Shown here: positions 8,600 to 42,238 of the stretch, piece by piece | Position numbering within the stretch: the first letter of the stretch is position 1 | How the letters are laid out: each line of letters starts with the position of its first letter | Assembly (NCBI GenBank): GCA_964613815.1 | Contig: CAZTKG010000004.1 | Location: 25,892 to 89,891, forward strand | Origin: an uncultured Gammaproteobacteria bacterium | GTDB lineage: Bacteria > Patescibacteriota > Patescibacteriia > UBA9934 | Length of the DNA stretch: 64,000 nucleotides | Direction: 5' to 3' | Position numbers and translations under genes: made by a program | Notes under the pieces: model-generated | What the model was told of the DNA's origin: nothing | What the model saw: only the letters and a program-made list of their open reading frames with translations | Database searches by the model: none

Positions 8600-9664
8600 A
8601 TGCATATCCTCCTCGCAGCACTTTTGCTGCTCACACAGGCATTCGCAACCCCACACGCCCGAACCATCATCGTCGGCGTCCCAGGTTACGCAAATGCCCC
8701 CGAGGCATACGCAAGCCTTCCAAACGCCACCAACCACTGCCTCGCAATTCGAGGCATCCTCAAGAGAGAATCTCCACTCGCCCTCTGCACCACAGAACTG
8801 ACCGAAAAAGAGGCAATCCTCAAGGCCACAACAGTCTTCATCCAAAACCCAGAAGACACGACTCCAGTCGCCATCTTCTGGCGAGGACTCGCCCTCTCCG
8901 GACCAAGTCTCGCCGCAAGCGACACAAAGATCTACGAGCCCCCAAACGGCTCCGAAATCTCCCTGAGCACCCTCAGTGACACACTGGCACGCGCCGCTCC
9001 AAACGCAGTCCGTGCCATCATCACAAACACGGCGCCAGGCGAAACCACAGACGAATTCCTCATCCCAGACGGACACGAAGACATCAACATCCCCGGAGCA
9101 CTCGTACTCCACATCACTGCAAGAGGCGAAGGAATCACCGAGGAGACAACCAGAAACGCAACCATGGACTGCTGGCTGAACGCCGGAGACTCCATCACTG
9201 CCGACGGCAACCTCCAGGCAAACGAATACGCCTACTGCATCTCGCGAGCACTCCCATCTTCGACCCTCCACTTCATCGGAAACTGGCGCGAACAAACCCT
9301 CACCGGCCCAATCACGCCTCCCCCTCCACCACCTCCGCCTGAAGTCATCGAAGACGATCCACCGGAAATCAAAACCCGACGAATCACCCACTCGGCAGTA
9401 AAGCCAGTCACGATCTCAATCGGTACCGCCAGCTTCATCGCTGCCGGCACCCTCACTGCGATCGCTGAACTGGAACGACTGCGCCTCATCGATGCGAACG
9501 CTTCCTACGGCTCCTTCCGGGAAACAAAAGAAGCAGCAGCTCGCTACGATCGCATGCGATTCGCAAGCTACTACCTCTTCGCCACCTCCGGCGTCACGCT
9601 TTCCCTAGGCACCACGAGCATCATCGTTTCCGCTCGCCAGGCGCGCATCAAGAAAGCCTTCTAG
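8600..9664 (+). CDS. hypothetical exported protein with poly-Pro linker and C-terminal TM
   Basis: Signal-like N-terminus, P8 run, C-terminal hydrophobic helix. Immediately downstream of the kinase. Terminator-like hairpin at 9667-9695. Confidence 0.5.
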   Translation: MHILLAALLLLTQAFATPHARTIIVGVPGYANAPEAYASLPNATNHCLAIRGILKRESPLALCTTELTEKEAILKATTVFIQNPEDTTPVAIFWRGLALSGPSLAASDTKIYEPPNGSEISLSTLSDTLARAAPNAVRAIITNTAPGETTDEFLIPDGHEDINIPGALVLHITARGEGITEETTRNATMDCWLNAGDSITADGNLQANEYAYCISRALPSSTLHFIGNWREQTLTGPITPPPPPPPPEVIEDDPPEIKTRRITHSAVKPVTISIGTASFIAAGTLTAIAELERLRLIDANASYGSFRETKEAAARYDRMRFASYYLFATSGVTLSLGTTSIIVSARQARIKKAF

Positions 9665-9688
9665 CCACCCATCAGGGTGGTCATTTTT

Positions 9689-12019
9689 TTATTCTACAGG
9701 CTCAATCGGTTCAATATCATCAACCACATCATCACCAGCTCGCAATCGATCAAGCCGCTGCAAAACCGCCGTATCATCCGGATTCAACGTCTGCACAACC
9801 TCAACCTCCGCAATCGCTCGATCAATATCCCCACGATCTTCATAAATAGAAGAAAGATACCACCGCGCATTACTATAATACGGAGAAATCTCAATCACCC
9901 GCACAAACTCAGCCTCAGCCTCATCAACCTTTCCTTGCTGTAAATACAGAAGCCCAAGCTGGAACCCAACCCCAACATCCTGAGGATTCGCAAGGCGCAA
10001 CGTTTCAAGTCGAGAAACCGCCTCCGAAAGATTTCCCTGCCGAGAATAAGCAAGGGCTAAATAATAAAACGCAGGAGCATAATCCCCCTTCAATGCAAGC
10101 GCACTACCCAAAACCTCAACCGCCCGATCAAGCGCAGCTCCTCGCTCTTCAATTGCCCCTCGAGCAAAATCCTCATCCTCACTCGTCGCATAAACCGCAA
10201 GCTGATCAGCACGAATCAAATGCGCCCGCCCAAGCGCAACATAATACTTCGGATTCTGCGGAGAAAGCGCCACCGCCTCCTCATAAGCCGCGATAGCAAA
10301 CAAATCAGCATCAGCAACCACACTCGCAACATCTCGATAAACATCTCCAAGCGTGGACCAGTTCACGACATTATTAGGCGAAAGCTCCACACTTTTCTGC
10401 CCAGAAGAAATCGCAAGACCCACGACATCACGAAGCACATTCGGAGCCATCACCCCTTCCGAAACTTCCGTCGCGGCAAGTAAGTACGCGTGACTCAAAT
10501 TCCGATAATACGCATCATTCCATCGATTAAACCGAACCGCATCCTGCAAATAAGCAATAACCTCTTCCTTCTCAGCTCCTGCACTATCCGCACTAATCGC
10601 TCGAGCAAAAGAAATTTCCGCCGCATAACGAGAACTCGTCATAAACAAAAGCGTCACCACCCCAACCGACACGATCATAAATCCAAGCGATACGCCAAGT
10701 GCCATGCGAGGACTCCGTCTAAAGGCAATCACACGCTCCTTAGCAGGCAACCGACTCATCAAAAACGCAGACAAAAACCAAAACACAAACCCGAGCGTCA
10801 AATTCGAAGAATAGACAACCATCGCAAACATCAAAACCGCCCACCCGGAAAGCCCAATAACCGCAAGCATCCACTCCCGATCATCCCGCTCCCGAAACAC
10901 ATGCATAAGCGTCTCCCCAAGCAAAAATCCAACAAACAACAAAAACAACCCAACACCAACAATTCCCATCGTAGAAACAAGCGTGAACAAATGACTCACA
11001 CTCCGATCAAACCGCACATCCCAAAGCGCGGTAGAATTCACCTCCGCCACATGATGCTTCGCATAATCAATCACATACGTCCCAGGTCCAGACCCAAACA
11101 GCCATCCAAAGTCTCGAAGCGATTCCTCAGCAACATGCCAACTAGCTCCATAAGAAGGCGAAACCTCCGCCGGAAGCACTCCAGAAAGCGGCGAATCAAT
11201 AAACAAAAACAAAAGTGAAACAACAAACAGCACCATCACCGCCACAAGCCGACGAACCTCATCAAACACCCGCGGACGAATAAACCCAAACACGAACATA
11301 CACCCAAGACCAACAAGCACACTCATCCAAACAACCCAATAATCAAGCGCAAGCGCAACCAAAACAAACCCCAAAATCGAAATCCACATCAACCCTTTCT
11401 GCAAAACCCCCTTCCATCCCTCCGCAACTAAAACACCAACAGAATCATCACGAGACAAAACAAACACACCTCCAGCAATCACCGCCATGCAACCCAAATA
11501 CAACCCAAGCGCATGCGGTGTTCCAATCAAATTAAAAACTTCACCGCCAGAAAACACACCAAAAATCGAAACCAATCCAACGATTCCCGCGCCTCCAAAC
11601 AACGACCCAAAAAACGGCACCAAACTCTCCTCATCCCGAAGCATCCGAGCACCAACCAAAAACACCACCAAATAAGCAGCGATCGTCAAAAAACTCGTAT
11701 ATTCCTGCATCCCCTGACCAATAAAACTCGTCACCGGAGCAAGAGAAAATAACGAAGAAATCAAAACTCCAAGCCCAAACAACTTCGCAAGAACAATCAA
11801 ATTCAATTTCCAAACCCGAACCTTCTTCTCCAAAACCGACCCAGCCAAACTCCCGAGAAGTGCAAACAATCCAAAAACAAGCAAAACCGTCTGCTTATTA
11901 ATCTCCAAAGGATCCGTCGTCCAAGGCAAGTAAACAATTGGAATCAAAAAAACCAAAACAAAAATCGAATACCGCGAAAGAGAAGCAAAAAGCCTCTCAA
12001 AAGAAACACGAGTGTTCAT
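9689..12019 (-). CDS. O-antigen ligase-like (Wzy_C/WaaL family) polytopic membrane protein with C-terminal TPR repeats
   Basis: About 440 aa of multi-TM N-terminal region followed by tetratricopeptide-like repeats (A-x-x-Y-Y-x-L-A motifs). Confidence 0.6.
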   Translation of the reverse strand: MNTRVSFERLFASLSRYSIFVLVFLIPIVYLPWTTDPLEINKQTVLLVFGLFALLGSLAGSVLEKKVRVWKLNLIVLAKLFGLGVLISSLFSLAPVTSFIGQGMQEYTSFLTIAAYLVVFLVGARMLRDEESLVPFFGSLFGGAGIVGLVSIFGVFSGGEVFNLIGTPHALGLYLGCMAVIAGGVFVLSRDDSVGVLVAEGWKGVLQKGLMWISILGFVLVALALDYWVVWMSVLVGLGCMFVFGFIRPRVFDEVRRLVAVMVLFVVSLLFLFIDSPLSGVLPAEVSPSYGASWHVAEESLRDFGWLFGSGPGTYVIDYAKHHVAEVNSTALWDVRFDRSVSHLFTLVSTMGIVGVGLFLLFVGFLLGETLMHVFRERDDREWMLAVIGLSGWAVLMFAMVVYSSNLTLGFVFWFLSAFLMSRLPAKERVIAFRRSPRMALGVSLGFMIVSVGVVTLLFMTSSRYAAEISFARAISADSAGAEKEEVIAYLQDAVRFNRWNDAYYRNLSHAYLLAATEVSEGVMAPNVLRDVVGLAISSGQKSVELSPNNVVNWSTLGDVYRDVASVVADADLFAIAAYEEAVALSPQNPKYYVALGRAHLIRADQLAVYATSEDEDFARGAIEERGAALDRAVEVLGSALALKGDYAPAFYYLALAYSRQGNLSEAVSRLETLRLANPQDVGVGFQLGLLYLQQGKVDEAEAEFVRVIEISPYYSNARWYLSSIYEDRGDIDRAIAEVEVVQTLNPDDTAVLQRLDRLRAGDDVVDDIEPIEPVE

Positions 12020-26080: not shown

Positions 26081-26146
26081 GCCAAGATGGTACCAAAACC
26101 AAGCCCCTCTTGACAAAACAACCAAAAAAACCTAAATTAACCCCTT

Positions 26147-26397
26147 CCATTTGCTCGTTCGACACCAGTCAACATCTGCGGACGCCCCGTCCCCAGAGAC
26201 GCCACCACCCAAAGCGTCAATCCGCTCTGCATATGCAACGATTGCTCAGATTTCATCAGAAATCAGAAAATCGCTGCATATGCACGACGTTCGTTTGCCC
26301 GAACCCCTCTTTCGGCACATACCTGCATCAAGATTCCCGCAAACGCACTCTAGATCAAACGAAATGGAACCCACCCCTAATAAAGGGGTAATTTTTA
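26147..26397 (+). ncRNA. small structured RNA unit A1 (family defined in findings)
   Basis: TTGACA 26110-15, 17 nt, TAAATT. 5' CCATTTGCTCGTT pairs with 3' AACGAAATGG (26358-67). Internal hairpin cTGC-GGACG-CCCC-GTCC-CCAGA. Terminator CCCCT..AGGGG plus T-run. Confidence 0.5.
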
Positions 26398-26433
26398 TTG
26401 ACAAATACAACCAAAACATCTAGAGTCCACTTT

Positions 26434-26648
26434 CCATTTGCTCGTTAGTCATCCGCTAACACTGCGGGCGCCTCGCCCCCAGAAAAAAGCATACCTGACA
26501 CGACCAGGCACGCTGCAAATATGCGACTTTTACCCGCTTCGCTCCAGTAAAAGTCGCATATTTGCCACTCAAGCTGCGCTCGAAGCCATCACGCAACTGT
26601 CATCAAGCGAAATGGAACTCACCCCCTAACGAAGGGGTATTTCTTTTT
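26434..26648 (+). ncRNA. small structured RNA unit A2
   Basis: TTGACA 26398-403, 17 nt, TAGAGT. 5' CCATTTGCTCGTT / 3' GCGAAATGG. Internal hairpin GGGCG-CCTC-GCCC and a perfect 19-bp stem GCAAATATGCGACTTTTAC/GTAAAAGTCGCATATTTGC. Terminator CCCCT-AACGA-AGGGG plus T-run. Confidence 0.5.
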
Positions 26649-26682
26649 GACAAATCCCCAAATTCCGCTAACCTAACCCCAT

Positions 26683-26937
26683 CAACTTGCTAGACGTCCT
26701 CGTCAACCTGCCCGCACCCCGCGGCCAGACCCAGACACACCCCCAAAGACCCCGAGTACAGAAAATCTCGCCTTAACGGAAATTTTGCTCCCAAACTCGC
26801 AAAATTATCCAACCAGTCAAGATTTTCTGCCGCTCCCGAGAGAAATCCGCCACTCGCCACAAGCGGCTTCACTCCGATTTCTCACGCTCCAAGTACCAAG
26901 CGAAGTTGACCCTCCCCGCCCAAAAGGCGGTTTTTCT
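26683..26937 (+). ncRNA. small structured RNA unit A3
   Basis: TTGACA 26647-52, TAACCT 26669-74. 5' CAACTTGCTAGACG / 3' AAGCGAAGTTG. Internal hairpin CCGCA-CCCC-GCGG-CCAGA. Terminator CCGCC-CAAAA-GGCGG plus T-run. Confidence 0.5.
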
Positions 26938-26941
26938 GTCC

Positions 26942-27024
26942 CATCTATCGCTCCGGCTCCGCCGAGCCCTATCGTCGAGCTCAGCTCGACCCTATCGTTC
27001 AGCTTTGCTGAATTCTATCACTCA
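26942..27024 (+). repeat. iteron-like direct repeats of (C/T)CTATCG spaced 23-28 bp, containing GGCTCCGCCGAGC
   Basis: Four CTATC(G/A) repeats. The same module recurs at 40001-40078 and partly at 40582-40640. Confidence 0.5.
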
Positions 27025-27035
27025 TGCTTAAAAGC

Positions 27036-27142
27036 TTGACAAATCACCCAAATTCCGCTAATCTCCCCCTCTGAATCAATCCCGATTCACCCCCGCTCCT
27101 TTCGCTTCGAATTGAGTACCACCCCGCGCAAAAGAGGCTATC
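27036..27142 (+). promoter_or_regulatory. promoter and leader of the RT gene
   Basis: TTGACAAATCACCCAAATTCCGCTAATCT is nearly identical to the unit A3 promoter TTGACAAATCCCCAAATTCCGCTAACCT. AAAGAGG RBS before ATG 27143. Confidence 0.55.
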
Positions 27143-28408
27143 ATGGCCAAGAAACCCCAAAAGGGACCCAAGCGCCCAGGTCAAAAAGGCTACAAGGACA
27201 ACAATTTCCAGTTGATCCTCGCCCTCCCGGCCCACTTCGCAGAGATGCTCCGCGAACTGCTTCACATCCATCAGTCCGACTGGGAAGTCCTCATGGACAT
27301 CCTCCGGCAAGGACACGAAGCCGCCTACAGAGAAGAAAAACGCCGAAAGGGCAACGGTGGCACACGCTACATCCATGCCCCCTGCGACACCCTCAAGGAC
27401 GTGCAGCGCAAGATCCTCAACCAGTTCCTCTCCCAGATCCCGATCCACTTCATTCGCTGGGGAGGCCGGAAGGGCAGCTCTGTCGTGAAGGCCGTCGACA
27501 ACGCCATCGGCGCTCGATACGCCTTCAGCATCGACATCATGAACGCCTTCCCGTCGGTCTTCCGAAGCCGAGTCCAGGCAGCCTTCATCGAGCCCGTACG
27601 CCACATGCTCCGCATGTACAAAGGTCTCGAGATATCCGAAGACGACATCAAAACCCTGGCCTACGCCCTCGCCGACCTCTGCATCCTCCACGACCGCCTC
27701 CCGCAGGGTCCACCTTCTTCGCCGCGAATCCTCGACATCGTCTCCTTCGGCATGGACCGCGACATCGGAGCCCTCGTCGGAGAGTACCGCACCCCCATCA
27801 ACAAGATGCATGCGTTCATCTGGGTCGACGACATCAACATCGTCAGCCACGAACCCATCCCAAAAATCGTGCAGGAAAAGCTGAAGGCAATCATCAGAAA
27901 GTACAAGTTCATGCCACACCACCGTCCTGGCAAGTGCGACTACTTCTCTGTCGAAACCGGCAGGTTCCCAATCCTCCTCGGGATCAACATCTTCACCGGA
28001 ACCCTCGCGCCCAAAACGGTCAGACGCTTCCGCAGCAAGCTCAACTGGCTTCTCAAGCAGAACACCTGGGGCGTCAAACAACTCCAAACGGCAGCCGGCA
28101 TCGTTGCCTACCTCGACCAGATCTACCCATCAACCGGTCGTCGTCGCAAGCGTCTTCCTTCAGCTCTCCGAGTCCTCGTCCCCCGCACTCGCGCCCGCAT
28201 CAAGGCCGAACGCGCCGGCGACCCGGTGACCATCAACATCACCGAAGTCGTCGAAGAGCTCCTCGCCGAAAAAGAAGAAAAAAACGGTCAGACCGGACGC
28301 AAGATCATCGACACCATCGTCCACGACGCCTCCGCAACCGGAGACCCCGACCACGACATCGAGATCCGCATCGCACTCGCTCAAGAGGCGCTCGCCGAAG
28401 CAAGCTGA
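27143..28408 (+). CDS. reverse transcriptase (stand-alone, retron-like fingers/palm; unusual V-D-D motif C)
   Basis: G-G-T-R-Y-I-H-A-P-C-D-T-L-K-D-V-Q-R-K-I-L (retron-like motifs 1-2), F-S-I-D-I-M-N-A-F-P-S-V (motif A), L-P-Q-G-P-P-S-S-P-R-I-L (motif B'), F-I-W-V-D-D-I-N-I-V (motif C), L-L-G-I-N-I-F-T-G-T downstream. Confidence 0.8.
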   Translation: MAKKPQKGPKRPGQKGYKDNNFQLILALPAHFAEMLRELLHIHQSDWEVLMDILRQGHEAAYREEKRRKGNGGTRYIHAPCDTLKDVQRKILNQFLSQIPIHFIRWGGRKGSSVVKAVDNAIGARYAFSIDIMNAFPSVFRSRVQAAFIEPVRHMLRMYKGLEISEDDIKTLAYALADLCILHDRLPQGPPSSPRILDIVSFGMDRDIGALVGEYRTPINKMHAFIWVDDINIVSHEPIPKIVQEKLKAIIRKYKFMPHHRPGKCDYFSVETGRFPILLGINIFTGTLAPKTVRRFRSKLNWLLKQNTWGVKQLQTAAGIVAYLDQIYPSTGRRRKRLPSALRVLVPRTRARIKAERAGDPVTINITEVVEELLAEKEEKNGQTGRKIIDTIVHDASATGDPDHDIEIRIALAQEALAEAS

Positions 28409-28823
28409 TCTCCTCAATCTCACCCTGTCGCTCGCCTACCTACCGAAAGGTAGAAGCAGCGACAGGGGATCCTATCTCGCCCTTCACCCAAAAGTGGAGA
28501 TCGAGTACGATCGAAACCTTCCCTGCAGTTTGCTTGAAAATCGGTCACCAAAAGACATTACGCGCCTAGCGTCATGCCGACCAATCACCCAAGACGACTA
28601 AGCCTCGCTGACAAAGACAAGCTTTGTCAGACGCGGTCAGGTACTCCGGTGAACAATGGGGGACGCGAGCTTCCCAATACGCCCACCTCCATACCTGACA
28701 GCGCTACCTCGTCAGTCGAAACTGCACCTTCCGGAAGTCCAACCAACTTCCGGGTTCTTATATCGCCCTTCTCCAAGCAGAAGGTCGGCAAAGGAACACC
28801 GAACATTTCATCAGGAGCACCCA

Positions 28824-29936
28824 ATGCTACAAGTCCGCGCCGTCGAAACAAACGGCAACATCACCTGGGAATTCCTCGACGAATCCCAAAGACGCTACTA
28901 CTTCGCCGAACTCGACGAACCATCCCATGACGCAGCCCCCACCCCAGATCACATCCCAAAACAACGATTCAACGACGGCGACATCTGGAACGCCGAGATC
29001 GTCCGCGCTGTAAGAGAAGGTCGCGACCGAGTCGCCTACATCCGACTCATCTCCCAAGTCCGAGACCTCTCACCCTGGGAATCCATCACCGAACTCCCTG
29101 GCTTCTGGACCGACCCAGACATGCTCAAGTCCGTCCTCGCTCTCTTCCATCTCAAAGCCTGCGTCCTCCTCAAAGGCTCAAAGGGAAGAGGAAAAACGAC
29201 CTTCATCTTCATGGTCGCCGAGCAGCTCGGCTGGCAGCACCCGTGCAAAGTCGACATGGCCGCCATCAAACGCGCCACCGACATCGCCGGCCAAAACGCC
29301 GCCAAGAAGGGAAGTACCCTCTTCCAGGGCTCCGAACTGTTCCACTTCCTCAAGCGGGCAGAAGCCGCCCACAAAGCAGGCCTCCTAGACACCTTCCCAG
29401 TCCTCCTCGACGAAATCGGCCGCGTCCACGCCAAAGCAACCGGCGCGCTCCACGGCCTGTTCGACGACACCCGCATGATCACGCTCACGACCGCAGAAGG
29501 CAGCATCACCTTCCGCATCCCCCCAAACGTCGTCATGATCGGCACGGCCAATATGGGATACGCCGGCAACTTCGAAGTCGACGAGGCACTCAAAGATCGC
29601 TTCATCGCGATCAACATGCCTCGCATCCCCACCGAAGAAGTGGCCAAGATCCTTATCGCAGAAGCCGGCATCACGCAACAACAAGCCCTCGACATCGCCC
29701 GCATGGGAGAAATCCTCGAGGACCTCTCTCGTCACGCCATCAGCTTCGCACCAAGTCTACGCGCACTCAAAGTCCTCGCCCAAATGGTCGCTCTCGGCTT
29801 CAACATGAAACAAGCCGCCTTCACCTGCCTCACCGGCTGGCTCGAAGGTGAGATCACCGACCACAGCTCAGAAGCCGGCAAAGCCTGGGTCGCCATCACC
29901 ACAAAGGCATCCGTCGACCCCGACGACGAAGAATAA
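28824..29936 (+). CDS. MoxR-like AAA+ ATPase (AAA_5/CbbQ/NorQ-like)
   Basis: CAGGAGCACCCA-ATG at 28824. Walker A L-L-K-G-S-K-G-R-G-K-T-T, Walker B V-L-L-D-E-I-G, sensor-1 I-G-T-A-N-M, Arg-finger region A-L-K-D-R-F. The upstream part of the 426-aa track ORF lacks an RBS. Confidence 0.75.
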   Translation: MLQVRAVETNGNITWEFLDESQRRYYFAELDEPSHDAAPTPDHIPKQRFNDGDIWNAEIVRAVREGRDRVAYIRLISQVRDLSPWESITELPGFWTDPDMLKSVLALFHLKACVLLKGSKGRGKTTFIFMVAEQLGWQHPCKVDMAAIKRATDIAGQNAAKKGSTLFQGSELFHFLKRAEAAHKAGLLDTFPVLLDEIGRVHAKATGALHGLFDDTRMITLTTAEGSITFRIPPNVVMIGTANMGYAGNFEVDEALKDRFIAINMPRIPTEEVAKILIAEAGITQQQALDIARMGEILEDLSRHAISFAPSLRALKVLAQMVALGFNMKQAAFTCLTGWLEGEITDHSSEAGKAWVAITTKASVDPDDEE

Positions 29937-29984
29937 CCCAACCTCCAGCAGAATCTCTGCTGGCTCATATCCTGAGCTCGATAC

Positions 29985-31440
29985 ACCACATCGAACCCAG
30001 GCCACGAGCAAATTGCTAGAACCTCTTCAAGAGACGGTCGCTAACCTTCTTGCGCCTCGCATCAAGTAGACCATTCACCCAACTCGACCAGCCCGGTCCA
30101 TCACGCCACTCTCAAGCGACGTGATCCCCGGATCGATACCATCCTACGTCAGGTATCGATTTCGACACCTCAGATTTCAATTACACACTTCCGGCTTCCA
30201 GCCTCCGTCGCGAAATCAAAATCAGAGGTGTCAAAACTATCGATCTCATTCGAATTTGCTTTTCACATCTTAACGGTTTGCTAGACTCCCAAAAGGGAAG
30301 GCCCCTCATCCGCACGCGCTTCGCGTCCGGTAGGCCAGTCACCCCTCGTGACCACGCATGACAGAAATCTGTCATGTCCTGTCATGTTGCTACTCACTCA
30401 TCGTTGAATGAGCAACATAATAACTTCCTCGCTCGCCACAACATGACAGAACCGAGCACGACAAGCGAAACCGTCCTAAACCACGCAACCTAAACACCGT
30501 GGTTTACCACGTCGCTCGCGCAGCGACGTGGCTCTTATCCCGCCCCTGAACCTCTCAGAGTCGGGAACCGAGTAAACTGCTAGAACCTCTCATCGGAGAG
30601 TCGGTCATTCATCTTCTTGCACCCAGCATTAAGTAGACCATTCACCCAGCTCGTCAAGCCCGGCCTCATCACGTCGCTCAAGAGCAACGCGACGAGGTCA
30701 TAACGTCACGACGTCACGATACCGTTACGGTAACGTCACGGTAACGTCACGTCATCAGAGGCCGTCGCCGAGTAACATCAACGCGCCGTAACGTCACCGT
30801 GACGTTACCGCAACGGCACTGTCGAGCTCTTACGAGTTTACTTCCTAGCGACTTGCTAGACACCCCGAAAGGGAAGGCCCCCTCATCCGCACGCGCCTCG
30901 CGTCCGGTAGGCCAGTCACCCCCAGAGGCCATGCCAGGGACAAACAAGTATGTCCCTGCTGGTCCCCTATCGCATTCGTCAGATGCATGGCGAACACGCT
31001 ATCACATCATGACTCACCGCGACAGGGACAAGCCAAGGCCATCCAGCGAAGTCGTTCCACCGTCGCCCACGCGACACCCTCCGGAGAATTCTCCGGGCTC
31101 TTATTCCGCCTCTGACCCAATCAGAGACGGAACATGGGCAAACTGCTAGAACCTTCTCGCAAGAGAAACGGCCATCAATCTTTCTGCGCCGTGCACCAAG
31201 TAGGCCATTCACCCGACTCGACCAACCCGGTCCTCCGGAAATGTCGGGAAACCCGATGCATTTTTACACGAGCTCGCGCGATATCGCGCGACCTTCCCTC
31301 CACTCGTTCGCGCGATATCGCGCGATCTAGCGCAAACAACGGGTCCTCACGAGTTTGCCACGCCAGAGGCCAAGCCTCTGGATTCTTCTATCGAGCTCCT
31401 CCCCGAGAAGCCCGACAAAAGAATCCCTAGCCCTTTCAAA
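29985..31440 (+). repeat. structured non-coding spacer: three diverged tandem composite units (modules E-C-var-D-var) plus perfect palindromes
   Basis: C modules 30010-30099, 30574-30665, 31139-31234 begin AAA(T/C)TGCTAGAACC. D modules 30278-30345 and 30852-30922 begin TTGCTAGAC. E modules 30530-30568 and 31095-31133. Palindromes GTAACGTCAC-c-GTGACGTTAC at 30788-30808 and TCGCGCGATATCGCGCGA at 31274-31291 and 31308-31325. Confidence 0.7.
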
Positions 31441-31451
31441 AGGAACCCAAA

Positions 31452-33269
31452 ATGCCCCTCTCTCCAACCGAAATCGCCCGCTCCCGCGCCATCCTCACCG
31501 CCATCTTCCCAGAACTCGTGAGCATCCTCCTCGCCATCACCGGAAGACCCGTCAAACTTGTCTGGGACCCCAACATCAGCACCGCAGCAACAGACTGCAA
31601 AGCAATTGTCTGGGCCAGCCCAAATCCATTCCTAAACGGATTCCCCGACGTTGGCAGAGGATCCACCATTCACGAAGGCGGCCACATCAAATGGTCACGC
31701 TTCGGCTCCCGTCTCATGCGCCAAGCCAAAGAAGAGGGAGGAGAAGGCCTCAGCCACCTCCTCAACCTCATCATGGACCGCCGAGACGACACCCTGAACG
31801 CAGACCATAACCCCGGCATAGCAACCTGCCTCCGCGCCCGCCTCGCCTACCTCTGCACCATGCAACACCGCCTCATGATGAAAGCCGCGGTGGACAGAGT
31901 CATGGCTCGCGAAGAAAAAAAACGATCATCGCCGTCACCACGCGCGATCAGAATCGCCGAACTTCGCAAAAAAAGAGACATGGACCCACGCGAAGTAGAC
32001 ACCCCTCGCCTCGAAGGCCGCGAAGCCGAAGACAAAATCACCAAACTCCTCTCCGGCGTAAAGCCAAAGGACGCTTGGGAAGACTTCTTCTTTGCCTGCA
32101 AGTGGCACAAAGGCGCCAGAACCCGCCGAGGCCGTAAAGCCATCAACATCATCGGCACCCAGCGCCTCCTCAAGGCAACCCCAGGTCAACTCCTCGGCCT
32201 CGCCAAACGCGTCCACACCATCCTCGGTGACCGCCCAAGCGAGCAAAAAACTCCACCACCCAAAGGATTCCAAAACCTCATCACAATCGCTCGCGCGATC
32301 GAACGAGGCGACAAAGAATCCATGGCAGCCCTACGCGCCATCGACCCCGACATGCACGCCGCAGTCATCCTGCTGCACACCATGGACCCAGGCATCGCCA
32401 AACTGCTCGGCAAGATGGCCAAACAGCATACGGCAAAGTCACGCGCAACCGGCATGGAGAAACTCAAAAAAATTCTCCAAACCGGATTCCGCCACCCAGG
32501 CCCAATCTCCATCGGAGACCCCGGAAAGGTCAAGGTCATAGAGCTTCCTCACAACGAAATTCACCGAGCAACGCACCGAGCTGTTCTCGCCGAAGTCGCA
32601 CATCTCAAAGACCAACTCGTCCGCACTCTCAGAAAACTCGACTCTCCAAGTGAATTCACGCTCTACGCCCAAGACGAAGGCGACGAACTCGACTTTGACG
32701 AAGTGGCCTCCATGGCATGCGGACTCGGCGGCAACTGGCAAGAAACCGTCATAGAACGCGACATCGACGCCCTCATCGCCATCGCAGCAGATATCAGCGG
32801 CTCCATGGGAGGAGAAAAACTCAGAGCGCTCCGAAGACTTCACGCCCTCCTCACAGAAGGCATCGAAGTTCTCGGCGACAGCGCAGAAGGCTACGCCTGG
32901 GCGTATCACTCACAGACCATCTTCGACCTCGGTCGCACCGCCCCAACAAGCGCCTTCCACACGCTCAAAGCAGACTACGGCAACTCTGACACCACCATGC
33001 TCACCATCGCCGGCACCCGCATGGCCATGTCCAAACGTCGCCAAAAAATCCTCTTCGTCATCACCGACAACGGCCCAGACAACATCCAGACAGCAGGGGA
33101 GAGAGCAAGACAACTCCTCGCAAGAGGCGTCCTCGTCATCCACATCATGGTAGACGTCCACGGCATCCCCGACATCTACCCAATCGAACTCCCATACGTC
33201 TCCATAGACGACCTCATAAACGGCGAGTTCAACAAACTCCTCACCCTCATCTTCAAACACTTGAAGTAA
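31452..33269 (+). CDS. two-domain protein: N-terminal HExxH (zincin-like) region plus C-terminal von Willebrand factor A domain
   Basis: I-H-E-G-G-H-I-K-W near the N-terminus. vWA MIDAS D-I-S-G-S-M-G-G-E then F-V-I-T-D-N-G. Terminator ATCCACGCACAACGTGGAT+T7 at 33270-33297. Confidence 0.7.
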   Translation: MPLSPTEIARSRAILTAIFPELVSILLAITGRPVKLVWDPNISTAATDCKAIVWASPNPFLNGFPDVGRGSTIHEGGHIKWSRFGSRLMRQAKEEGGEGLSHLLNLIMDRRDDTLNADHNPGIATCLRARLAYLCTMQHRLMMKAAVDRVMAREEKKRSSPSPRAIRIAELRKKRDMDPREVDTPRLEGREAEDKITKLLSGVKPKDAWEDFFFACKWHKGARTRRGRKAINIIGTQRLLKATPGQLLGLAKRVHTILGDRPSEQKTPPPKGFQNLITIARAIERGDKESMAALRAIDPDMHAAVILLHTMDPGIAKLLGKMAKQHTAKSRATGMEKLKKILQTGFRHPGPISIGDPGKVKVIELPHNEIHRATHRAVLAEVAHLKDQLVRTLRKLDSPSEFTLYAQDEGDELDFDEVASMACGLGGNWQETVIERDIDALIAIAADISGSMGGEKLRALRRLHALLTEGIEVLGDSAEGYAWAYHSQTIFDLGRTAPTSAFHTLKADYGNSDTTMLTIAGTRMAMSKRRQKILFVITDNGPDNIQTAGERARQLLARGVLVIHIMVDVHGIPDIYPIELPYVSIDDLINGEFNKLLTLIFKHLK

Positions 33270-33413
33270 TCCACGCACAACGTGGATCTTTTTTTAAACC
33301 AGCGAACAAATATCCATTCCCATTTCGACCAACGCGGAGAAATCTCTCTCAATAACAACATATAAATTAAACCAATCACTTGACAAAACAACCAAACCAT
33401 GCTAAATTCCCTC

Positions 33414-33650
33414 AGTGCTACGTGGCCCGACCACACCTCTTCTCGCGCCTCGCGACAAGTTTACGCACAACCTAAGCGGACCAAGCCTGGCGCTTGCGCG
33501 TCTCATGAGTTTGTCGCACTACGTCGCGACCGCACTTCATGACGCCCTTCGCCCATCATTGCGGACAGCTCTTATCCCTACGGGGACCTGTCCGCAACGT
33601 ACGCTCAATCTCAACGCCCGCCGTGCATGCACGGCGGGCGCCTTTGATTT
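33414..33650 (+). ncRNA. small structured RNA unit F (same family, variant ends)
   Basis: TTGACA 33379-84, 17 nt, TAAATT 33402-07. Internal hairpin cTTCTCGCG-CCTC-GCGAcAAG matching the family motif. Terminator CGCCCGCCGTGCATGCACGGCGGGCG plus T-rich tail. Confidence 0.5.
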
Positions 33651-36966: not shown

Positions 36967-37197
36967 ACGCTAGCACAAATAGCCAATCTTGGCAAGAATA
37001 CAACAAAATCGAGTACAATCTACTTGACCACACGCAATTCACCTGCTAATATCCCACAGCTCATTACTCTTTCTGTCCCTCTGGCGTCAGTACCTCTACA
37101 GAGGGACAGGCTCCCACAACCCCCCAAGGCATGACGCTGCCAAAGGGGGTTATTTTTTTCCAAACGAAAAAGACTTCTCTTACAAGAAGTCTTTTTC

Positions 37198-39408: not shown

Positions 39409-39483
39409 CAGCGATCCGTCCCCTCGGCTAACACCGAGGGGTTTCGCTTTACAAAAAACCAAAAAATCGCTAATATCATCACC

Positions 39484-39744
39484 TCGATTTGCTAGATCAA
39501 AAAACCTGGTCCCTTCCCGCGCCCCGTGGCAAGACCCTCAAACACACCAATCGACCCCGACATAGACATTCACGAGACCAAAACTCTCGACAAGCTCAAC
39601 TTTTGGTCCCTAAAATCTCTATTCAAATCTCACTGTGACGAGCTCTCACGCCGTGACCACGGCACTCGAGATCGTGCAAACGATATTTGACTCTGGTCAA
39701 CAAGCGAAATCGAGCTTCAACCCTCACAAGGTTGCTTTTTTTTG
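39484..39744 (+). ncRNA. small structured RNA unit B1
   Basis: TTTACA 39448-53, 17 nt, TAATAT. 5' TCGATTTGCTAGATC / 3' AAGCGAAATCGA (39702-13). Internal hairpin cTTCCCGCG-CCC-CGTGG-CAAGA. Terminator CAACC-CTCAC-AAGGTTG + T8. Confidence 0.5.
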
Positions 39745-39766
39745 ATCGAAATGCTAATTTTGCCCT

Positions 39767-40000
39767 TCGATTTGCTAACCGCCGCTGGCCCCGGCACTCT
39801 CGTATCGACATACTAGATAAATCGATATGCCTCCCCGCGCCCCGCGGCGAGAAAAGCGAACACCCTACCAGATCAGGGGAAAGTTCTTCGATCCTTTCCG
39901 AAACCGTTCCGCGATGCTGACCACCTACGGCACTCACCAGCACAGAACGTTCCCAAGCCTCAAGCGAAATCGAGCATCAACCCAATCGGGTTGCTTTTTT
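39767..40000 (+). ncRNA. small structured RNA unit B2 (weak promoter)
   Basis: 5' TCGATTTGCTAACC / 3' AAGCGAAATCGA (39962-73). Internal hairpin cTCCCCGCG-CCC-CGCGG-CGAGA. Terminator CAACCCAATCGGGTTG+T6. Confidence 0.45.
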
Positions 40001-40137
40001 CTATCGCCCGGCTCCGCCGCGCCCCTGTCGTCGAACTCAACTCGACCCTATCGTTCAGCCTCTGAACCCTATCGCCCAAAACCTCCATCATCAACATCAC
40101 CATTGACGCATTTCACCATTACTGCTAAATTCACCCC

Positions 40138-40559
40138 TCGATTTGCTAGATCGACACCCTTCGATCCCTCTCCGCGCCTCGCGGCGAGACCCCGAAATAC
40201 ACGGACAGACCAAACCCCGTACACAAAAGGACAAACTCTACGCGTTAGTCCTTTCATGTACGGCCCGAGTCGCGCACAGACCTATCGTTACCGATTCTAC
40301 GGTCAATGCGCGCCTTCCGGTACTAGTATCAAGCGAAATCGAGCCCTTACAGCTTGTTAGATGTAAACCGCATCACCTCCCGCGCCCCGCGGCAGGACCA
40401 GCGCACACACCGCGCGACCAGGATTGCCCATAAATGGGAAAGTCCCGAAACTGACGAGTTTATGTCACCCGCCTTCGGCAAACTCCAGAAACTCGATCAG
40501 TTTCGGCACTCAAGCCCTTCATCGAAGCTGTACCCCCTCGCAAATGCGAGGATTTTTAA
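40138..40559 (+). ncRNA. small structured RNA unit B3 plus a degenerate promoter-less half (B3b)
   Basis: TTGACG 40103-08, 17 nt, TAAATT. 5' TCGATTTGCTAGATCGAC, internal cTCTCCGCG-CCTC-GCGG-CGAGA, 3' AAGCGAAATCGA 40331-42. Second internal hairpin cTCCCGCG-CCC-CGCGG-CAGGA at ~40375. Terminator CCTCGCAAATGCGAGG+ATTTTT at 40535-59. Confidence 0.45.
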
Positions 40560-40682
40560 TATGCCGGGGGCATATTAACCCTTCGTAGCTCGGCTCCGCC
40601 GAGCGAAGAACGGGTAATCATCGCAAAACTCTATCACCCCCTCCATTGACACGTAACCCAATCCACTCCAAACTAAATCCAT

Positions 40683-40960
40683 TCGATTTGCTCTCAGTTG
40701 CTAACTGCAACCGCCACGCTTCTTAGTCCGGAATAAGCAGCGATCGTCCTCGCGCCCCGCGAAGACAGGCACCTACACAAAACGCCAATGCCGAAAGCAT
40801 TGCTCCAATGCGCGCATTGGTTCAATTATTTCGCACAAACGAACACTCAACTGACAGAATCGCATGCCACAAAACCATACGACACCTGTCAGTCAAGCGT
40901 CAGTTTGACCAAGGGCAACAAGCGAAATCGAACCTCAACCCCAACGGGTTGACTTTTTTT
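40683..40960 (+). ncRNA. small structured RNA unit B4
   Basis: TTGACA 40646-51 with a weak -10. 5' TCGATTTGCTCTC, internal gTCCTCGCG-CCC-CGCGA-AGACA, 3' AAGCGAAATCGA 40920-31. Terminator CAACCCCAACGGGTTG+T7. Confidence 0.45.
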
Positions 40961-40983
40961 CACCAAACCGCTATATTCACCTC

Positions 40984-41264
40984 TCGATTTGCTCCCCCGT
41001 TGCTAGCTACAACCGCTACGCCACTCAGTCTAGAATGAGTAGCAAAAGATCCTCGCGCACTGCGAAGACAGAGCAACCCACATCAAAAGTCCATGGCACT
41101 AAATCCGTGTAGCCAATTCTTGTCTCAACTGATTTAGTTGCTTTCTACGCCCGAATGAATGCATCAGTCGCTCAAATACCGCCAAATGCATTTACATCCC
41201 AGTCGCAGAAAGCACAGGACCAACAAGCGAAATCGAGCCTCAGTCCTCACGGGCTATTTTTTCT
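40984..41264 (+). ncRNA. small structured RNA unit B5
   Basis: TTGACT 40949-54, 17 nt, TATATT. 5' TCGATTTGCTCCC, internal TCCTCGCGC-ACT-GCGAAGACA, 3' AAGCGAAATCGA 41224-35. T-run at 41258-64. Confidence 0.45.
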
Positions 41265-41299
41265 TGACAAAAAACCAAAAAAACACTAACCTAACCTCT

Positions 41300-41551
41300 T
41301 CGATTTGCTAGATCGACCCTCCTCGATCCCTTCCCGCGCCCCGCGGCAAGACCCCGAGCTGGACCCCAAGTCCATACCTGACTAAGCCTGACATTCCTAC
41401 GTCTGTCAGCTTTGTCAGTAACCCGTCAGCAGATAAGTCGCTCACTATGCGCAGAATATTTGCACACCAATCGCGACTGCATACTACTGACGGCTTACCT
41501 CCGAACAACAAGCGAAATCGAACTCTCCCGCCAAAAACGGGATCTTTTTTT
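41300..41551 (+). ncRNA. small structured RNA unit B6
   Basis: TTGACAAAAAACCAAAAAAACAC-TAACCT promoter 41264-92. 5' TCGATTTGCTAGATCGACC, internal cTTCCCGCG-CCC-CGCGG-CAAGA, 3' AAGCGAAATCGA 41510-21. Terminator CCCGCCAAAAACGGG+T7. Confidence 0.5.
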
Positions 41552-41609
41552 CAAAACAAATCACCCCACCCCATTGACAAAACACAAAAACCATACTATC
41601 TTAACCACC

Positions 41610-41850
41610 TCGATTTGCTAGATCGACCACCTCGATCACTCCCTGCGCCCCGCAGCGAGACCCCGAGCCAGACACGAAGTCCGTACCTGACCGTCGCGGA
41701 CAACCGCTAAGCGTCCGTCCACGCCCTTCAAGTCCCGTCAATGGACTGCCGGCTCACCGAGCAATAAATACGCCCGCTCACGACAAGTCCATTGACCGTC
41801 CTCAAGGGCAACAAGCGAAATCGAACTCTCCGCCACCGGCGAGTTTTTTT
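41610..41850 (+). ncRNA. small structured RNA unit B7
   Basis: TTGACA 41574-79, 17 nt, TATCTT. 5' TCGATTTGCTAGATCGACC, internal cTCCCTGCG-CCC-CGCAG-CGAGA, 3' AAGCGAAATCGA 41813-24. T7 run. Confidence 0.5.
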
Positions 41851-41945
41851 ATCCCATAAACCATCTTTCACCTCTTAAAAGCATTTTTGTTATTCATTGA
41901 CAAATACAAACAATTAAACTAGTATTAGCAATTGTTCATTCATCA

Positions 41946-42238
41946 CGACTTGCTAGATCGTCTCAACCGATCCCTTCCCGCGCTACGCGGCAAGAATAAC
42001 GGATACACACAACGTCCATAGGCGTCCGTCCTCTCATCGACTATTCAATCGAGCAAGTAAACCATAACTTGCTCTCAAAAAATATTCGCTCGAGGAGGAC
42101 TTAAGCGGACGGCTGGGGCTGCCCTTCTGTCCGTACAGGACAGAGGCTGTCCTTATGTAAGGACAGAAGGTTTGCCCCCTCCTGCTTATTCCCTATCATT
42201 CGAAGTCGTGCCGTCCGCCAATACTGGCGGATTTTTAA
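41946..42238 (+). ncRNA. small structured RNA unit B8 (variant terminal helix CGACTT/AAGTCG)
   Basis: TTGACA 41897-902, 17 nt, TAGTAT. 5' CGACTTGCTAGATCG, internal cTTCCCGCG-CTA-CGCGG-CAAGA, 3' CGAAGTCG 42201-08. Two tandem hairpins TCTGTCC-GTACA-GGACAGA and CTGTCCTTA-TG-TAAGGACAG. Terminator CCGCCAATACTGGCGG+ATTTTT. Confidence 0.45.

Follow-up and report, generated by a model that had tools for sequence, protein, structure and literature searches.

Organization of the locus

We analyzed a 64,000-nucleotide stretch of contig CAZTKG010000004.1 (hereafter the window) from an uncultured bacterium, focusing on a 1.5-kb intergenic spacer at positions 29937–31451. The spacer belongs to an operon on the + strand, in which a gene for a reverse transcriptase (RT) is followed by a gene for a NorQ/CbbQ-type AAA+ ATPase, the spacer, and a gene for a NorD-like protein with a von Willebrand factor type A (vWA) domain. 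The genes of the operon and the RNAs and signals of the window described below lie on the + strand unless otherwise stated. An earlier description of the spacer, made without database searches (hereafter the sequence-only reading), overlooked the retron-type RT gene directly upstream of the AAA+ gene, and recognizing this RT reframes the whole locus. We found that the region is not a mere spacer but is composed of five tandem structured-RNA units, designated C1, D1, C2, D2, and C3. At least 18 such units are present in the window, namely, the five in the spacer, one (B) in the gap between the RT and AAA+ genes, three upstream of the RT gene, and nine approximately 8 kb downstream.

The spacer had been described as three composite repeats of approximately 565 bp, built from C, D, and E modules with unit-specific palindromes, and this organization was reproduced both by reading of positions 29700–31700 and with a direct-repeat finder. 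The C modules start at 30013, 30577, and 31143 (79–82% identity over 67 nt, spaced by 564–567 nt), and the D modules start at 30278 and 30853 (84% identity over 73 nt). The two E modules that had been listed (30530 and 31096; 80% identity over 59 nt) are present, but their number was underestimated because five E-like elements exist. The start motif shared by the modules, TGCTAGAMM, has six occurrences in the window, where 0.85 would be expected. The palindromes were also found, namely, GTAACGTCACcGTGACGTTAC at 30788–30808, TCGCGCGATATCGCGCGA at 31274–91 and 31308–25 with starts 34 nt apart, and CATGACAGAAATCTGTCATG at 30357–30376, which is 2 nt away from where it had been placed. The spacer had been said to contain no open reading frame (ORF); mechanical ORFs of up to 116 amino acids do occur in it, but a Pfam scan gave no match for any of them, and all overlap RNA units.

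Closing stems of the RNA units

Each C or D module constitutes the conserved 5′ half of an RNA unit of approximately 200–275 nt. At the start of a module, (T/C)TGCTAGA comes after a short variable stretch, and the 7–9 nt just 5′ of GCT (hereafter a1) are the exact reverse complement of a stretch located 200–270 nt downstream (a2), which is always preceded by CG. In 18 of 18 units, inspection by eye showed this 7–9-bp complement anchored exactly at the conserved motifs, with an invariant G immediately following a1 and an invariant CG preceding a2. In a computation of the closing stem for all 18 units, pairing was seen at 94% of the eight anchored positions, compared with 70% (maximum, 82%) after permutation of the partners; the value of 94% includes unit S5, which was anchored 1 nt off and is therefore mostly unpaired in the computation, although it pairs by eye. 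For the six in-operon units, 98% of the anchored positions paired, and the maximum over all derangements was 83%. Several a1/a2 positions showed full compensatory changes.

In the spacer, C1 occupies 30006–30261 (a1 GAGCAAATT, a2 AATTTGCTT), with its 5′ module at 30006–30096 and a variable, msd-like part at 30097–30252. D1 (30273–30474) is closed by ACGGTTT and AAACCGT and carries CATGACAG four times in its variable part. C2 (30570–30843; GAGTAAACT and AGTTTACTT) contains a 30-bp hairpin of ACGTCAC repeats with an 11-nt period. D2 spans 30847–31056 (AGCGACTT and AAGTCGTT). In C3 (31137–31359; GGCAAACT and AGTTTGCC), the two copies of TCGCGCGATATCGCGCGA pair with each other within the variable part. 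Unit B, which is included in the module alignment, lies at 28524–28726 with a1 TGCAGTTT and a2 AAACTGCA.

Internal structure and variable parts of the units

The six in-operon 5′ modules aligned well and share a small first hairpin and a two-tier second stem, GGYC...[inner stem]...GRCC. The covarying stems that had been pointed out in the C modules were borne out: on the structure defined in this analysis, 93.8% of the cells pair and five pairs show double changes, whereas controls with slid partners gave 28–49%. Minimum-free-energy folds of all 18 units have closed ends, two 5′ hairpins, and one to three hairpins in the variable part, of which usually one is long. The complementary DNAs (cDNAs) that would be copied from the variable parts, taken as their reverse complements, gave fold z scores of −2.0 to −7.2 against dinucleotide shuffles; for the spacer units, the values were −7.2 (C1), −4.3 (D1), −6.4 (C2), −3.2 (D2), and −5.7 (C3).

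The two halves of the units diverged to different extents. Between paralogues, the 5′ modules are 77–88% identical, whereas the variable parts, at 53–65% identity, are near the random level of 51–58%. The variable parts with palindromes are the hairpin regions that take the position of the msd in a retron RNA. Each spacer unit reiterates its own 7–8-mer three to eight times in both orientations within its variable part (30097–31351 across C1, D1, C2, D2, and C3): ATCGATA occurs three times, CATGACAG four times, ACGTCAC six times with the 11-nt period, CAGGGACA three times, and CGCGCGA eight times. This reiteration exceeds what a single hairpin needs. Palindromes of 4, 6, or 8 nt were not enriched in the 18 variable regions compared with dinucleotide shuffles; we therefore rejected the idea that the stems of multicopy single-stranded DNAs (msDNAs) display restriction or methylase sites.

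The window units matched no Rfam family, either at the gathering threshold or with the limit relaxed to E < 5; the matches obtained were tRNAs and chance hairpins resembling microRNAs. The units of seven related loci had no Rfam match either.

Stand-alone units

A covariance model (R1) was built solely from the six in-operon modules of the window and was searched against 388 kb. It gave 11 further matches at E < 1, all on the + strand of the window; ten fell on the units upstream of the RT gene (U1–U3) and in the downstream array (S1–S9), and the eleventh fell on an RNA just after the vWA gene. The link that the sequence-only reading had drawn between the spacer modules and "sRNA-like" units elsewhere is thereby confirmed. 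Its suggestion of embedded small RNAs also holds, since the modules are the 5′ halves of discrete structured + strand RNA units that are homologous to cassettes flanked by promoters and terminators.

Most of the stand-alone units have their own TTGACA-type promoter and intrinsic terminator on the + strand. U1 (26145–26369; a1 TTCCATTT, a2 AAATGGAA), supported by its fold and an R1 match of 20.3 bits, has a promoter with TTGACA at 26110 and TAAATT at 26133 and a terminator at 26373–26395. U2 (26432–26617) lies between a promoter at 26398–26426 and a terminator at 26621–26650 and was identified by its a1/a2 pairing, fold, and R1 match. U3 (26682–26909), which is closed by TCAACTT and AAGTTGA and likewise has a supporting fold and R1 match, follows a promoter read by eye (TTGACA at 26647, TAACCT at 26669) and precedes a terminator at 26916–26935.

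The nine units of the downstream array (39483–42210) were delimited by sequence, a1/a2 pairing, folds, and R1 matches and are located at 39483–39714 (S1), 39766–39974 (S2), 40137–40343 (S3), 40348–40532 (S4), 40683–40935 (S5), 40983–41237 (S6), 41299–41522 (S7), 41610–41824 (S8), and 41944–42210 (S9). A mechanical ORF of 177 amino acids at 39827–40360 overlaps S2 and S3 and is probably not a gene.

The RNA after the vWA gene, with its own promoter and terminator, lies at 33380–33650 (weak R1 match at 33393–33489, 20.8 bits). It contains the second stem-loop of the family (CTTCTCGCGCCTCGCGACAAG); an a1/a2 closing stem was looked for in it and was not found, and it may be a degenerate or specialized unit.

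E elements and transcription signals

The five E-like elements start at 28730, 29946, 30506, 31080, and 31363 and consist of a GC-rich hairpin, (C/T)TC(T/A)TAT..., and a second hairpin. They precede the AAA+ gene, each C unit, and the vWA gene, and three of the five were called terminator-like by a terminator scan. E0 (28730–28800), with a GC hairpin, TTCTTATATCG, and a second hairpin, received such a call. The element before C1 (29946–30005) has the hairpin CCAGCAGAatctCTGCTGG followed by CTCATATCC and a second hairpin. E1 (30506–30569) was identified from the direct-repeat family and the E alignment, E2 (31080–31136) from the repeat family, the terminator scan, and the E alignment, and E3, ahead of the vWA gene (31363–31400), from the terminator scan and the E alignment. 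A promoter scan detected no promoter-like site inside the spacer. The E elements may be weak, U-poor terminators or processing signals that punctuate the operon transcript.

Reverse transcriptase

The RT gene (27143–28408) encodes a protein of 421 amino acids, which was identified by Pfam (RVT_1), PADLOC, NCBIfam, a profile search against PDB, and its motifs. Its best PADLOC matches were exclusively retron RT models (1e-26 to 1e-15), and the best NCBIfam match was the retron St85 RT at 91 bits, which is well under the 235-bit cutoff. A profile of the RT and nine homologues, compared with all PDB chains, matched only retron RTs, with Ec86 first (1e-19), followed by Ec67, Kva2, Ec83, and Ec78. 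By these profile matches, the RT of the window is placed in the retron RT clade.

Retron RTs are characterized by NAxxH in region X, of which the His is most conserved, and VTG in region Y (RT7), of which the Gly is most conserved (PMC7736814). The RT of the window has an intact catalytic VDD. NAxxH is absent from it; KAVDNAIGA stands at the aligned place without a His, and it is the sole RT of the ten aligned that lacks this residue. VTG is replaced by LLG, with the Gly kept. The RTs of the relatives have NAxxH in nine of nine cases and VTG in eight of nine, the remaining one having VLG. At the catalytic motif, xDD is replaced by xDN in four of the ten RTs of the alignment. These catalytic and NAxxH sites correspond to residues at approximately 118–122 and 229–230 of the window RT.

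AAA+ and vWA proteins

The AAA+ gene (28824–29936) encodes a MoxR ATPase of the NorQ/CbbQ type, matching Pfam AAA_5 and CbbQ_C as well as NorQ (2e-9) and CbbQ (1e-6) in PDB. Its true start is most likely the ATG at 28824 and not the ORF start at 28656 because the homologues in related loci L004 and L001 begin at the position equivalent to ATG 28824; the gap between the RT and AAA+ genes is therefore larger than the ORF list suggests.

The third gene (31452–33269) encodes a partner protein of 605 amino acids with a helical N-terminal region and a C-terminal vWA domain. An invariant HExxH is found near the N-terminus, and an invariant DxSxS in the vWA domain represents an intact metal ion-dependent adhesion site (MIDAS). 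The best fold match of the vWA domain is that of NorD, and in a structure model the N-terminal region is all-helical, with moderate confidence there. The family is rare, with 43 representative clusters at E ≤ 1e-30 among 1.84 billion. A second group of proteins of 600–770 amino acids (P0160–P0165 and similar) matches only the C-terminal two-thirds of the partner profile (approximately 190–575) and has a different N-terminus.

The pair resembles NorQ–NorD and CbbQ–CbbO in that the AAA+ protein is closest to NorQ/CbbQ and the vWA domain with its MIDAS is closest to NorD. It differs from them in the N-terminus of the partner with its invariant HExxH and in its coupling to an RT and noncoding RNAs (ncRNAs), and no gene for a client metalloenzyme (nitric oxide reductase or Rubisco) was found nearby.

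Related loci

Homologues of the RT are few, amounting to nine clusters with 35–41% identity among 5.8 billion proteins. Fourteen genome loci were found, all labeled as or resembling Patescibacteria (Andersen-, Uhr-, Yanofsky-, Falkow-, and Saccharibacteria). In metagenome contigs, a single-protein scan detected no closer relatives, and a profile scan gave only matches of ≤47% identity. The RT–AAA+–vWA gene order is conserved in the Patescibacteria loci, each of which has two to five units between its genes. Locus L004 has four units between the RT and AAA+ genes and one between the AAA+ and vWA genes, and L014 likewise has four and then one; L013 has at least four between the AAA+ and vWA genes, and L021 has one after the RT gene and three directly after the AAA+ gene. 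The spacer is thus neither absent nor unstructured in orthologous loci, which hold structured multi-unit spacers. L004 is flanked by transposase fragments (HTH_Tnp_1 and DDE_Tnp_1/4) at 527–1104 and 9660–10474 of that locus, which hint at mobility of the system.

The units of the relatives start with a1-TTTGCT(T/A)GAC and end with ...C(C/G)-a2, and their a1 and a2 covary freely, as in AGAAGGCATTTT/AAGATGCCTTCT and AAAGGGGTGTTT/AAACGCCCCTTT. Among 69 nonredundant sites found in relatives by the motif only, 17 have a Watson–Crick complement of at least 8 bp at the anchor, compared with 0–1 in reversed or shuffled controls, and all 17 are on the operon strand. RNAalifold analysis of 22 units from relatives predicted a two-tier stem, in which 12 of 15 pairs show compensatory changes and G–U pairs are numerous. 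R1 did not detect the units of the relatives except for one marginal match; the homology of the RNAs across lineages therefore rests on the a1-TTGCTWGA start, the GGYC...GRCC two-tier stem, and the operon context.

Genomic surroundings

The AAA+/vWA pair is neighbored by RT, polA, holA, rmuC, and tRNA genes. The nearest named homologues of the window PolA are from Patescibacteria and Ca. Uhrbacteria (52–57% identity); therefore, the host is taken to be an ultrasmall marine bacterium of that group. The contig is present in samples JGI 3300008954, JGI 3300007765, ENA ERZ23498963, and SRR9166051. Four other contigs with the locus are identical to the window except for one base outside the spacer and thus offer no usable population variation. 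No similarity to the spacer was found in phage genomes.

An element of approximately 75 nt at 26954–27030, consisting of CGGCTCCGCCG followed by two CCTATCGT repeats 23 nt apart, lies just upstream of the promoter of the RT operon (TTGACA at 27036, TAATCT at 27059; element and promoter together, 26954–27064). It recurs at 40009–40080, upstream of the promoter of the S3 cassette, and a partial copy is present at 40591–40601. It may be a site at which a common regulator links the operon to the distant array.

Another small RNA flanked by a promoter and a terminator, at 37023–37160, lacks the TTGCT motif and adjoins two tRNA genes on the − strand. Throughout the window (1–64000), the + strand is strongly C-rich and A-rich, over genes of either strand: GC skew in 1-kb windows lies between −0.62 and +0.03, every one of these windows except the last having a negative value, and AT skew is positive throughout, an asymmetry that is unusually strong for 64 kb.

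A retron-like reading of the locus

In the msr–msd RNA of a retron, the two ends pair, a1 is followed immediately by a conserved G, and between this G and a2 lie one to three 5′ hairpins and then a self-complementary region (PMC7736814). The locus is similar to retrons as described there in its retron-clade RT, in the pairing ends of its units, the G next to a1, the two msr-like hairpins, and the self-complementary msd-like region, and also in having accessory genes in the same operon. It differs in that at least 18 ncRNA genes, instead of one, accompany one RT; that units lie not only upstream of the RT gene but also between protein genes and in separate promoter/terminator cassettes; and that several hairpins and a reiterated 7–8-mer are frequent in the msd-like part. 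The host is a member of Patescibacteria, the RT lacks NAxxH and scores far under all typed retron models, and the NorQ/CbbQ-type AAA+ and HExxH–vWA partners are not mentioned in the survey of retron types I–XIII (Mestre et al. 2020, PMC7736814).

We consider it probable that the spacer is a natural tandem array of retron-type template RNA genes, located in and around a new kind of retron-like operon. The first component of this reading, that the units are structured RNAs tied to the RT operon, is very likely; the second, that a panel of small DNAs is produced from them by reverse transcription, as their layout suggests, we propose with moderate confidence. In the proposed mechanism, the RT would bind the conserved 5′ (msr-like) hairpins, prime from the 2′-OH of the invariant G after a1, and copy the variable stretch into a small hairpin DNA, and one RT would thereby generate at least 18 different small DNAs from the spacer, B, upstream, and downstream units. 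In retron Ec86, the branching G is located directly after a1, and an unpaired G stands between the first templated C and a2; the a1-G and C-G-a2 junctions of the window units would match this arrangement, and 2′–5′ priming would fit them. More speculatively, and by analogy with other retrons, the AAA+/vWA pair might read the RT–RNA–DNA complexes as an effector or remodeler. The role of such a system would probably be defense against mobile elements, which is also speculative.

Engineered tandem msr–msd arrays ("multitrons") have been reported in which the units are reverse-transcribed independently by a single retron RT (PMC10370050). The window array resembles these in carrying several msr–msd-type units in tandem on one transcript, but multitrons are synthetic, derived from retron Eco1, and made for multiplex genome editing, whereas the array described here is natural and has diverged msr parts and its own closing stems. 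A stronger version of our proposal would make the locus a natural multitron, whose 18 or more hairpin DNAs with their own 7–8-mers serve as multiplexed decoys or sensors read by a MoxR-type AAA+/vWA-metallopeptidase machine; we offer this as a tentative possibility.

Several points weigh against the retron-like reading. Priming and reverse transcription are deduced from the layout of the units, which is their sole ground, and conserved synteny is the sole tie of the AAA+ and vWA proteins to the RNAs. With no His at the NAxxH position and LLG at that of VTG, the RT of the window could be impaired or work differently. In four of the ten aligned RTs, xDN stands where others have xDD. The units match no Rfam family, retron or other; their msd-like parts fold as one to three hairpins instead of one long stem; and the covariation within the window comes from paralogues of common descent, which inflates the shuffle tests. 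In addition, every described retron type that we checked has a single ncRNA and other effectors.

Alternative explanations

The alternative that survives best is that the units are real structured RNAs of the operon that act as RNAs (scaffolds, decoys, or ligands) and are not reverse-transcribed, comparable to Y RNAs with Ro60/Rsr. We regard this as unlikely, although it would accommodate the absence of the NAxxH His and of the V–T of VTG in the RT of the window. The locus is similar to Ro60/Rsr with Y RNAs in that a vWA protein is encoded near small RNAs with pairing ends; the closure by a terminal stem is as in Y RNAs, and the helical N-terminal region and C-terminal vWA domain of the partner superficially resemble Ro60. 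By contrast, an RT is present here, its catalytic Asp residues are intact, and its relatives keep all the retron signatures. With an invariant G adjacent to a1 and a C-G preceding a2, the units fit a retron priming junction. No TROVE domain was detected by Pfam in 10 members of the partner family, nor was one detected by fold, and a Ro60/TROVE-like identity of the partner is not supported.

Another explanation is that the in-operon units are mainly cis-regulatory, so that reverse transcription, RNase H processing, or attenuation at the E hairpins sets the output of the vWA (and AAA+) gene, the small DNAs being by-products or regulators of effector expression. The location of the units and the weak terminator-like E elements exactly between the genes, together with the lack of a detected internal promoter in the spacer, is in line with this idea, as is a type VI retron reported to derepress the translation of its effector through reverse-transcribed DNA (10.1101/2025.10.22.683967). 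However, twelve homologous units lie at a distance from the genes, as independent cassettes that have promoters and terminators of their own. Moreover, the relatives carry their arrays in differing gaps (RT–AAA+, AAA+–vWA, or both), and the arrays thus keep no constant position with respect to the vWA gene. We consider this explanation improbable as the main function.

The sequence-only reading had also proposed a dense array of operators for dimeric DNA-binding proteins controlling the vWA gene. Perfect palindromes are indeed present, including two copies 34 bp apart approximately 130–180 bp upstream of the vWA start, and each unit reiterates its own 7–8-mer. The palindromes, however, lie inside RNA units bounded by a1 and a2, at the position of a retron msd, and are wholly different between paralogous units and between orthologous ones, related loci bearing other hairpins there. 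The same layout is found in stand-alone cassettes that are remote from genes and not upstream of any. The conserved stems keep G–U pairs, which on the other strand or in DNA would become A–C mismatches; short palindromes show no excess over shuffled sequences; and no promoter was found nearby. An operator array is thus very improbable. Least likely of all is that the repeats represent degenerating copies of a small repeat that is mobile or resembles a repetitive extragenic palindromic (REP) sequence or a miniature inverted-repeat transposable element (MITE), without an operon-linked function: there are many copies within the 64-kb window, but they all share one strand, many are flanked by promoters and terminators of their own, compensatory changes preserve their stems, and the units accompany the same three-gene operon in distant lineages.

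Comparison with other systems and the literature

Among the vWA–MoxR conflict systems, some are linked to an RT, which there belongs to a diversity-generating retroelement (DGR) with a protein-coding target (Kaur et al. 2020, PMC7159879). The present locus shares with these systems a MoxR–vWA couple in a predicted conflict locus and the linkage to an RT (PMC7159879); it differs from them in that its RT is of the retron clade and its repeats are noncoding RNA units. A DGR, which would have a DGR-clade RT and a pair of template and variable repeats in a target gene, was accordingly rejected for this locus, the RT profile matching retron RTs only and the repeats being noncoding paralogous RNA units. 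CRISPR arrays were taken to have near-identical repeats of approximately 23–50 nt, unique spacers that are not self-complementary, and cas genes. The modules here are 70–95 nt long and 77–88% identical, the variable parts are self-complementary, and a Pfam scan of seven ORFs detected no Cas domain; a CRISPR array was therefore also rejected.

The survey of retron types contains no vWA, AAA, or MoxR term (PMC7736814), a review of prokaryotic RTs mentions the Candidate Phyla Radiation (CPR) for DGRs only (PMC8632793), and a 2026 metagenome survey of retrons has none of the terms vWA, AAA, MoxR, and CPR. A full-text literature search joining retron with MoxR, vWA, NorQ, or CPR returned nothing relevant. 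A September 2026 preprint that mentions "ncRNA array" together with RTs (10.64898/2026.09.22.753630) lacks, according to term probes, vWA, MoxR, AAA+, Patescibacteria, msDNA, von Willebrand, candidate phyla, and retron-like, which suggests that its subject is not a vWA/MoxR/Patescibacteria system. We did not find an arrangement of at least 18 RNA genes serving one RT described in the accessible literature.

Biological meaning

In the present understanding, a retron has a single RT, a single RNA, and a single small DNA that guard a single effector. If the proposed reading is true, a natural system with one RT and many templates would alter this picture of one RT and one RNA, and a retron immune system could have many specificities instead of one. 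Retron-type systems would also exist in the CPR, where DGRs represent approximately 80% of all RTs in an RT census. Reverse transcription would be tied to a MoxR/vWA remodeling machine, a pairing that we did not find described. The role of the msDNA sequence would become directly testable because the paralogous units keep the half that would bind the RT and vary only the half that would be copied. Finally, a compact RT that accepts many tandem templates with natural punctuation would be relevant to multiplex retron editing, which now relies on engineered arrays.

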